Assembly (NCBI RefSeq): GCF_054482525.1
Contig: NZ_CM137006.1
Direction: 5' to 3' (one strand)
DNA: 64,000 nt
This document shows positions 21,001 through 24,000 of the stretch, one piece after another. The position numbers are program-made. Position 1 is the stretch's first letter; each line of letters opens with the position of its first letter.

Positions 21001-24000
21001 ACTCTTACGTTCATAAATAAGCTTGCTTAATGTATTTATATCTAAAAATTTCGCATCAAAAGAATCAATCTGTACTGTTTTTTCTTGTGCTGACATCTTC
21101 TTTTCCTGGCTGGTATGGCAAGTGACGGAGACAAGAGAAACGTTTTAAGCTCAGTTATCTCCGCCATCACTTTCCACGAATGACAAGTAATTTTGCCTAT
21201 TTTAAAACCATGCAAAAGGCAGGGTAAAAGGAGAAAATTCGATCGAATCGATCGACAAAATCGATCATACATGATGAAGATTTTTTATCGAATCCATAAA
21301 AATAGTGACAGCTAACCGGCGTTGCAGGAACAGTCAGAAATGGGCGTTTGGGAAAGAGCCATAGCACTACGTCGTCGCTGACATAGAGGAACTGTGCTTT
21401 GTTGATAAGATCCTTTATACGGCAACCAATCCACTGGACAAAAGATGAACTACGTAATCACCGGGTTCTCACTGACGAAATACAGAAGTTAATGACACAA
21501 CTGTGCCATGTACCTTGTACAACAGCGGTGGAAAGCTCTCAGAACAATGGAATTGCAGAAAGGTGTTAAAACGATGAAAGCCTTCATACCCAAATCGAAT
21601 GTAAGAACGGCAGTAAAGACTGAATTGCGTAACCTTGCATTAGCTCGAGTATTACACTGCATAGTGTGCAGGGTTATCTCCCATCGAGAAAATATCGGCG
21701 CCAGCGAATAACGTCACCTTAGATGTAGCAGTTGCCAAATAGTGACTCAAGGGCGGGCTTACCGCATACACTGACACTTAGCGGATCGACAGAATATTAT
21801 TAGCAGATCATCCCTGAACGCAACGTAATTATCGTAATAAAGGCTTTTTCTGGCTACCAGGAAGATCTGACATGGCTCTGCTCTGGAACCAGGCCGCAGG
21901 AAGCATCAATCTGGAGTTTATCAGCTACTGGAATTCCGGTGTATTGGCAGCCCCTGATAATCACCTGACCCACGAAGAGCGCTCTGCTTTGCAGAAACTC
22001 TGGGGCGGTTTGGAGACAGGAGATGCCATTTAACGATTATAGGACGTTCTGATGAAGTCCATGATTTTACCTCCGCCTTAATTAACTGTTTTCTTTCTGA
22101 AGAAGAGATTGTCTGGTGGCAATCAGGTGGCATTTTCCCGGATCCCTGGCCCGCTAATATATCCCGGCTGAACTGACGATTAACGCGATATTGCAAATAT
22201 GGCATCTGAATCGATCATGATTTGGCGGCATCCATCTCCGTTCACAGTTTGGCATGCTTCCGATCATTGATTGGCATCCAGCCAGTCACTCCGGGAATTA
22301 ACTCTTTTCACCGCAGTCTCCATTGCCGTGTTTAAACCAATGGAGACGTCAATGTCCAAAAAGAGAATATCCAGGAGCACTATGGATACCTGTTTTAAGA
22401 TCCTTCAGCTCAAGTTCGACCAGAAGCTGGCTAACCGTTGTATCGGACTTGCAAAACACCAATGGGGATTGATCTCTATTTTGCGACACAGACGCATTAT
22501 CAATACATCGATGGTGCGATCAAATACCTCAGTGCTCTCACCGTGGATCAAATCCAGCAATTGCTCACAGATTAAGACTCGTCGGGAGTTTTGAGCCAAC
22601 GCCAGCAGTAAACCCATATTCACCTTGAGTGAAATCTACAGGCTGTTGATGAGCATCAACCAGCACGTAACGGTCCGGGATCAAGTGTCCAGCCGTTAAA
22701 AAAACCACTCTACTACCCTGCTCGACCTAAGCCTCGGCGTTCAGCCGCCTGAACGGGTATGGCAAGGGTGAAAAGAAACAGCATCCCCAAAGTACCGACC
22801 AGACGACAGGATGATGCTGGAACAGAAAGCATACGCACCTCCCTTAGAATTAGACAGTGCGTACAGGATACGTAAGACAGGGTGACGGGGCGGCGATAAA
22901 CCCCGAACACATGGCAGAGTGTGACCACCGGATAATGCGCTCTGAGTTTCCCGATTATCGGTAACTATTCAGGAAGTCTGATATCAAGAGCGCGGTAGCC
23001 TTTTTTAATATCGTATTTTGTTCCTCCAGACGACACACCTGCTTTTCCAGCTCACGAATACGTTGCTGCTCTGATGTGAGTGGTGCTGCAGCAGAAGGCG
23101 TGATCTCCTGACGTTCCCGTCTGAGCTGACGTACCCATGCCTCCAGAGTAGAGAAACCAACATTCATAGCTTCAGTAGCTTCCCGGTATGAGTAACCGTT
23201 ATCAACGATAAGTTGGGCGCATTCCAGTTTAAACTCAGGAGAGAAGGTACGCTTTGTTTTCTTGTTGTTTTATGTTGTGGTGAGAATATCACCTTTAATC
23301 AGGTGGCCAAATTTACTGTGCCACTACAAAACGACATTCGTGCCGGATGCACTGGAGCAGGCAGTATGGGCCGTCGTCCATCTGGCACCATCCATCACAG
23401 TAATAAAGGTTCTCAGTATGTATCGCTGGCCTACATGCAGCGACTTAAGGAAGCCGGATTACTGGTATCAACAGGGAGTCCTGGCGACTCGTATGACAAC
23501 GCGATGGAGGAGAGCATCAATGGTCTTTACAAAACGGAGGTAATACACCGTAAGAGCTGGAAAAAACCGGACAGAAGTGAAACTGGCCACACTAACGTGG
23601 GTGGACTGGTATAACAATCGACGATTACTGGAAAGGCTGGGCCATATTCCTCCGACAGAAACAGAAAAAGCTTATTATGCCTCCATCGGAAACAATGATC
23701 TGGCAGCCTGAGTTCACAGATAAAATACTCTCCAGGAAAACCGGGATGGTTCACCGGAGTGTTAAAGTGTGGCTTAAAATTATGCAGTTGCCGCCTGGCG
23801 GTCAAGACTGTCGCTACAGGATAAATCGCTCCGGTGAAACACAACTGCGCAAATCACCATACTGTGCATACGTATTACCGTGAAGGAGATCGGTGAGTTA
23901 CGGGGTTATTGGGTGATCTCCTTCCATGAAAATACGCAGAGCACTTAAATCGCTGCTGGCGCGCACTAAAAACGTGTCAACCTGGTTCCATTAGCGTAAC

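Follow-up and report, generated by a model that had tools for sequence, protein, structure and literature searches.

A mosaic of truncated genes and insertion sequence stubs lies between the head and the fimbrial cargo of an Escherichia coli tRNA-Phe island

We analyzed a 64,000-nucleotide stretch of E. coli chromosome (the window; contig NZ_CM137006.1 of assembly GCF_054482525.1) and found that its gene-free interval at 21097-24034 (2938 bp; the zone) is a noncoding scar composed of broken genes and insertion sequence (IS) stubs, at least eight in number and unrelated to one another. We consider it very probable that the zone is a nonfunctional mosaic within a tRNA-Phe (pheU/pheV) pathogenicity island of extraintestinal E. 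coli, where it separates the conserved head from fimbrial cargo (foc/sfa or pap). The scar would have been built by successive IS insertions, adjacent deletions mediated by IS ends, and short-homology deletions, each event cutting away most of the resident sequence. The feature is of a known kind and is already partly annotated; PGAP lists four pseudogenes in it (GTP-binding/CobW C-terminal, winged helix-turn-helix, transposase, and integrase core domain).

In the window, upstream chromosomal genes are followed by tRNA-Phe (14889-14964), a tyrosine-recombinase integrase, and then a genomic island. The island begins with the integrase, a TPR-like gene, a phosphoethanolamine transferase, an outer-membrane protein, and a 122-aa gene; beyond the zone and a 238-aa gene follow a papX/focX-type MarR regulator, sfaY, and an intact F1C/S fimbrial operon. 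In strain SCU-484, which is identical over the 4 kb tested, dsbD and dicD precede the tRNA, which identifies the pheU site. The position of the island differs among strains (pheU in the window and SCU-484, pheV in UPEC_U013 [L009]), with the 4 kb tested being 100% identical. Islands at tRNA-Phe have been described as IS-rich mosaics of exchangeable modules that share one common integrase and move between pheU and pheV (PMC7686366). The island studied here resembles the papGII-type pathogenicity islands of that report in its tRNA-Phe, tyrosine-recombinase integrase, and fimbrial cargo, as well as in the IS elements and gene remnants between its modules; it does not differ from them in kind, and the base-level dissection of one junction is the sole addition made here.

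We observed the following fragments and junctions in the zone and at its borders (window coordinates):

20728-21096, minus strand: intact 122-aa gene, left border of the zone
21097-21476, no strand: spacer, part of the conserved island head module, without recognizable gene remnant
21477-21720, plus strand: 3' remnant of an IS3-family orfB, integrase-core C terminus, frameshifted
21768-21829, plus strand: upstream sequence of a TonB-dependent receptor gene, 90% identical to L002 1-62
21825-21829: receptor/CobW deletion junction, ctgaacgcaacgtaat joined to tatcgtaataaaggc, microhomology of at most 3 nt
21830-22176, plus strand: tail of a CobW-family (COG0523) GTPase gene, codons 281-399 of 399
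22187-22459, plus strand: IS21-family left end (ISSso4-like in PGAP), terminal repeats and 26 IstA codons
22462-22708, minus strand: OmpR/PhoB-family response regulator piece, codons ~140-215, winged helix only
22739-22901, minus strand: start of a RAQPRD-family ICE gene, first ~35 codons and upstream region
22893-22901, no strand: deletion junction, imperfect 9-bp repeats gcgatAaac and gcgatGaac
22890-23328, minus strand: left end of an IS3-family element (here ISX), with terminus TGTAGTGGCAC..., frameshifted orfA, A6G region, and orfB start
23151-23273, minus strand: match to Rfam isrC (RF01387), sense, within the 5' region of the ISX orfA
23329-23753, plus strand: IS629/IS1203-type stub, last 425 nt, with right terminal repeat ...GGTTCA
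23871-23938, minus strand: 67-bp miniature with both ISEc12-type IS21-family termini, inner ends facing
24035-24751, minus strand: intact 238-aa membrane-protein gene with multiple hydrophobic segments, right border of the zone

Neither border gene (122 or 238 aa) matched a Pfam or NCBIfam family; some newer PGAP records list a "STM1630 family protein" across the 4-kb stretch. A preliminary description of this DNA had reported gene decay and no long open reading frame at 21100-23715. Both statements hold, the interval being slightly wider: the longest stop-free frame in the zone is 140 aa, compared with 115±23 aa for shuffled sequence and, for same-size stretches of the window, a median of 422 aa, so that the ORF content of the zone equals random expectation. 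A Pfam scan in six frames with stops masked gave matches to CobW_C (plus strand), Trans_reg_C (minus), HTH_Tnp_1 (minus), and rve/rve_3 (plus, two frames), and translated searches (tblastn and tblastx) identified the CobW, IstA, regulator, and orfB pieces. Every recognizable coding piece is 50 to 90% truncated, and most are frameshifted as well. The several short protein-like frames mentioned in the preliminary description correspond to the CobW C terminus and the IstA and RAQPRD N termini; the three fragments it had named are real, but the tally was too low, as at least eight unrelated fragments are present. Promoter-like and terminator-like sites in the zone were not above chance, and an Rfam scan of the zone found no credible family other than isrC.

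Broken frames of this kind might reflect sequencing or assembly errors in genes that are really intact. Single-base frameshifts do occur in three fragments, and the regulator fragment is also known elsewhere without its frameshift (P0001, 151 member sequences). However, the 4 kb is 99.8 to 100% identical across at least 25 complete genomes, obtained independently by different laboratories and from different hosts; 50 to 90% of each gene is missing, which is beyond any base correction; and neighboring genes in the window are intact, including an 892-aa usher. These three observations exclude assembly error as an explanation, to which we assign practically no probability; resequencing that restores intact frames had been named beforehand as the outcome that would overturn the decay reading, and the independent genomes carry the identical sequence instead.

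The left part of the zone combines island head sequence with the remains of a deleted gene cluster. The spacer lies downstream of the same outer-membrane protein and 122-aa genes in two other loci, to which it is 97% (21100-21306; L007) and 89% (21196-21475; L008) identical. It shows no coding signal, and no Pfam or NCBIfam family matched it in six frames. We considered an IS21-type end at 21196-21475 and rejected it, as only motifs of 10 to 11 nt matched (E values of 0.2 to 0.9). The adjoining orfB remnant aligns by tblastx to an "integrase core" pseudogene of L005 (...SSQNNGIAER... and HSVQGYLPSRKYRRQRITSP*) and also contains ...GYLPSRKYRRQRITSP*; by blastn, it is 76% identical to L005 and 67% identical to ISEc48-type copies.

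The next segments derive from two ends of one cluster. In other E. coli strains, the counterpart of 21768-21829 lies immediately upstream of a TonB-dependent receptor gene, and 21825-22226 aligns at 92.8% identity with the 3'-terminal 365 nt of a CobW-family GTPase gene and the 50 nt that follow it. The CobW tail (92 to 93% amino acid identity by tblastn; Pfam CobW_C, E = 3e-4) carries one frameshift near 21995. As a member of COG0523 it comprises the CobW_C part (codons 281-399) alone; the N-terminal GTPase domain with its metal-binding motif is absent. The intact order elsewhere is IS3 remnant, TonB-dependent receptor, DUF4198, and CobW, and an intact receptor-DUF4198-CobW unit is found in other E. 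coli at L002 122-4365. Because the receptor-upstream sequence in the window is instead joined directly to the CobW tail, an internal deletion of ~3.9 kb has taken place, and with it went both the receptor and DUF4198 genes along with 70% of the CobW gene.

Upstream of the receptor gene in L005 (3329-3347) lies a near-perfect 10-3-10 palindrome, aaaatgttat-gtt-ataacatttt, which we take to match the enterobacterial Zur-box consensus; no Zur box was found in the window with two mismatches allowed. DUF4198 proteins have been described as Zur-regulated periplasmic zinc-capture proteins (PMC12663993). The deleted unit was thus probably an accessory zinc-acquisition module, its link to Zur being inferred from sequence. 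Compared with Zur-regulated zinc modules of the receptor/DUF4198 (Zcp-type)/CobW kind, the CobW tail and receptor-upstream sequence of the window are 90 to 93% identical, but the window has lost the receptor and DUF4198 genes, the palindrome resembling a Zur box, and the GTPase domain. The zone records the loss of a probable zinc-uptake module in the island lineage of the window.

Immediately after the CobW tail, an IS21-family left end carries reiterated terminal repeats (TTTGGCAT...CGATCA) and the IstA start at 22382 (81% identity over 26 aa by tblastn). This piece is 86% identical to L014 3501-3770 and to L004, and its membership in the IS21 family is given by the terminal repeats and 26 IstA codons only, the rest of istA and all of istB being absent. 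Its first ~37 bp also follow the CobW gene in L002, which indicates that the IS21-type insertion is older than the divergence of the window and L002 loci. The 884-aa coding sequence at L004 3203-5857 is annotated "tnpC: IS66 family transposase" and yet has an IstA-type (IS21-family) N terminus (METCFKILQLKFDKKL...); it is probably a chimeric or misjoined gene model.

The response regulator fragment lies next to this IS21-type end. The OmpR-type fragment was originally placed at 22405-22623; the family assignment is supported by a Trans_reg_C match on the minus strand (22465-22617; E = 5e-8, 33.3 bits against a cutoff of 26.2), but the last 19 codons of that frame (22405-22461) are antisense IS21-type sequence, and the regulator part spans 22462-22708. 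The Pfam match covers only profile positions 11-61 of 77. By tblastn, the fragment shares 78% amino acid identity with codons 165-215 of a 235-aa Z5684-type regulator (O145/O157), has one frameshift near 22612, and ends at codon 215 of 235; the full-length relative aligns convincingly with the zone only from codon ~140 on. Like Z5684 of E. coli O157/O145, the fragment has a winged helix with Trans_reg_C above the cutoff; it differs from Z5684 in lacking the receiver domain and the last 20 codons, in being frameshifted, in its nucleotide sequence (73% identity), and in its genomic context.

A genuine OmpR-family winged helix could be what is left of a complete two-component system (kinase and regulator) that was once island cargo here and decayed in place, and the preliminary description had spoken of an ancestral two-component system. 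We regard this as unlikely. Six frames of the zone contain no kinase remnant and no receiver domain (Response_reg), and the fragment is flanked by unrelated DNA, namely, the IS21-type end at 22459 and the ICE gene at 22739. The nearest intact relatives, of the Z5684 type, sit beside genes for a PfkB kinase, an aldolase, a lyxose isomerase, and an ABC transporter cluster for sugar, with no adjacent histidine kinase. In protein searches for an intact close relative, we found only the truncated fragment (P0001 to P0007), with P0002 and P0003 being fusions to other partners, along with Z5684-type orthologues at 62 to 78% identity; no relative more than 82% identical and longer than the fragment was found. 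Short Z5684-type orthologues proved to be contig ends or truncated gene calls and start within ...GADDYIGKPF...ARVKAVLRR. Together, the missing receiver and kinase remnants in the zone and the missing kinase beside Z5684-type genes leave a resident ancestral two-component system unsupported, and we retain the reading of a mosaic scar, with the regulator piece as one of its unrelated parts.

The ICE-derived piece to the right is 81 to 83% identical to L010 5001-5172, which overlaps a RAQPRD coding sequence. Here, a less-decayed relative is informative: strain 95-3322 (L020) matches the window collinearly up to 22901 and then carries 1031 bp that are missing from the window, consisting of an intact FxLYD-domain gene and the distal part of ISX. 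In the window, this deletion lies between the imperfect 9-bp repeats listed above. Comparison with related islands, which had been suggested as a check, reveals the order of deletions through relatives such as 95-3322.

ISX belongs to the IS3 family, like IS911, ISEc31, and IS629/IS1203, as judged by its TG-starting terminal inverted repeat, HTH orfA (Pfam HTH_Tnp_1, E = 2e-11, minus strand; NCBIfam transpos_IS3), and A6G region, and its terminus TGTAGTGGCAC... can be aligned with the end of ISEc31. Overall identity to ISEc31 is 79%, and identity to IS911 is 93 to 96% over the inner part at 22890-23011; the element is a mosaic in which identity to IS911 is ~96% in the middle and 79 to 81% at the left end. 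The full orfB with its DDE (rve) domain, the second terminal repeat, and a target-site duplication are absent, and the element ends at the junction at 22890-22901. We examined two elements, one as a possible intact ISX and the other as a possible source of ISX, and rejected both: a full-length IS3 element in SBF22 does not align to ISX and is a different element, and the intact IS3 element of the window at 36777-37990 is only 79% identical.

The IS629-type stub is 93.4% identical, to the terminal base, to L012 1501-1925, a copy from an O157:H7 genome with at least 40 matching places. It shares with IS629/IS1203 the C terminus of rve and the right terminal repeat; weak Pfam rve/rve_3 matches are split over two frames, with a frameshift near 23560. 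Its left end, orfA, and complete orfB are absent, and the sequence to the left of 23329 is the ISX terminus. Compared with IS3 elements of ~1.3 kb, ISX (~440 nt) and the IS629-type piece (425 nt) are frameshifted stubs, and neither is able to transpose alone.

Two different IS3-family remnants, one inside the other, had been proposed for this part of the zone, and both points are borne out by the HTH_Tnp_1 (minus strand) and rve/rve_3 (plus strand) matches and by the junction itself. The intact ISX terminus ...GTGCCACTACA (at 23328) abuts internal IS629-type nucleotide ~887 (at 23329), which is consistent with insertion of one element into the other; no target duplication is demonstrable because the far side of the insertion has been deleted. 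In 95-3322, the ISX terminus abuts IS629-type nucleotide ~1054 instead of ~887. This nested loss of 166 bp starts exactly at the IS end, which is a signature of IS-mediated adjacent deletion. Beyond the two remnants proposed, the zone contains a third of IS3 type (21477-21720) and two IS21-family pieces.

The second IS21-family piece is the 67-bp miniature, which consists of a left terminus of 35 bp, 3 bp, and a right terminus of 31 bp (matching L006 5501-5535 and 8050-8080) and can form a DNA hairpin (z = -3). Stand-alone units of 60 to 67 bp with 83 to 88% identity occur in ~2770 of 5426 complete E. coli genomes, at a median of 2 places and mostly unannotated; judged by sequence and dispersal, the unit looks like a MITE-like derivative.

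Could the zone nonetheless be functional, as the source of an isrC-like small RNA from the ISX stub or as regulatory sequence for the 238-aa gene or the papX/focX-type MarR-family gene? The isrC model is matched at 93.2 bits over its full length (gathering score, 39), and IS3-family elements have a promoter of their own at the left end. In Salmonella, IsrC is an expressed, stress-responsive island small RNA encoded between envF and msgA (PMC2330248). Several observations nevertheless make a functional zone very improbable. Because the match lies in the sense orientation within the 5' end of a transposase orfA and contains many noncanonical pairs, we interpret it as IS homology and not as evidence for a gene. 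The window sequence matches the full-length Salmonella model at 93 bits but differs from Salmonella IsrC in lying inside an IS3-family orfA and in having other neighbors (the window does not contain the envF/msgA context). Strain R6 lacks everything to the right of 22377 and yet keeps papX and pap, two differences, of 1 kb and 166 bp, set strain 95-3322 apart from the window in the same stretch, and promoter-like sites are not above chance. The overlap suggests that an IS3-type left end either gave rise to the isrC family or has contaminated it, and derivation from such an end would be its most likely origin. As the Rfam model picks up IS3-family left ends, isrC matches in islands need caution.

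The distribution of the junctions is consistent with a scar that grew in stages. Among 5426 complete genomes, we observed the receptor/CobW junction in 399, the regulator/ICE piece in 144, and the FxLYD-deletion junction in 36, so that the junction frequencies are nested; the whole 4 kb is present in 45 genomes. These nested junctions (399, 144, and 36 genomes) might be used to mark lineages of tRNA-Phe islands. Over the 4 kb that includes the zone, the chromosomes of many extraintestinal isolates are 100% identical to the window, and the zone is 98.6 to 100% conserved among carriers. Such conservation might point to constraint, but it is accounted for equally well by recent common descent or by horizontal transfer of the island. 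Strain Es_ST80_L1_NDM_10_2017 carries two copies of the junction at 22857-22937.

What follows the head varies among strains. The fimbrial cargo is foc/sfa in the window and pap in R6 and 95-3322. In R6, the zone is kept only to 22377 and is followed by papX and pap; in SBF22, it continues with a different IS3 element inside ISEc12 and then sfaX; in W24 and PRO_A-1534, ato genes or ISEcp1/CTX-M-15 are attached to the same island head. The preliminary description had regarded the zone as an old junction between island modules, in agreement with the finding that the left module (integrase ... phosphoethanolamine transferase, outer-membrane protein, and 122-aa gene) precedes foc/sfa, pap, ato, or CTX-M depending on the strain. 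The pheV island of W24 (L008), which has the same head, carries an atoSC-atoDAEB cluster as cargo directly after the outer-membrane protein gene.

From these comparisons, we infer the following order of events. A TonB-receptor-DUF4198-CobW module would have lain beside an IS3-type remnant, with an IS21-type element just after the CobW gene. The ~3.9-kb deletion would then have taken out two whole genes (receptor and DUF4198) and 70% of CobW, after which unrelated pieces (the response regulator winged helix, the ICE gene start, and the FxLYD gene) may have been joined to the remains. ISX would next have ended up inside the IS629-type element, and in the lineage of the window, a 1031-bp deletion between the 9-bp repeats would finally have taken the FxLYD gene and most of ISX. 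Purposeful expression from the resulting scar is presumably absent.

We give a low probability to the more consequential proposals that the ISX end drives an isrC-like RNA or that the cluster of IS ends is a recombination hotspot swapping foc/sfa and pap behind a constant head; if the latter were true, the junction would be a mechanistic hinge of tRNA-Phe island diversification. As pseudogene and IS debris, the mosaic scar is suited to masking and has little import beyond annotation.

A second ORF-poor stretch of the window (~33250-36770; longest open frame, 132 aa) sits between the fimbrial regulators and the intact IS3-family element at 36777-37990. At the position corresponding to ~36412-36768 of the window, the UPEC_U013 record, which is identical, has a pseudogene of the LuxR family annotated as truncated.
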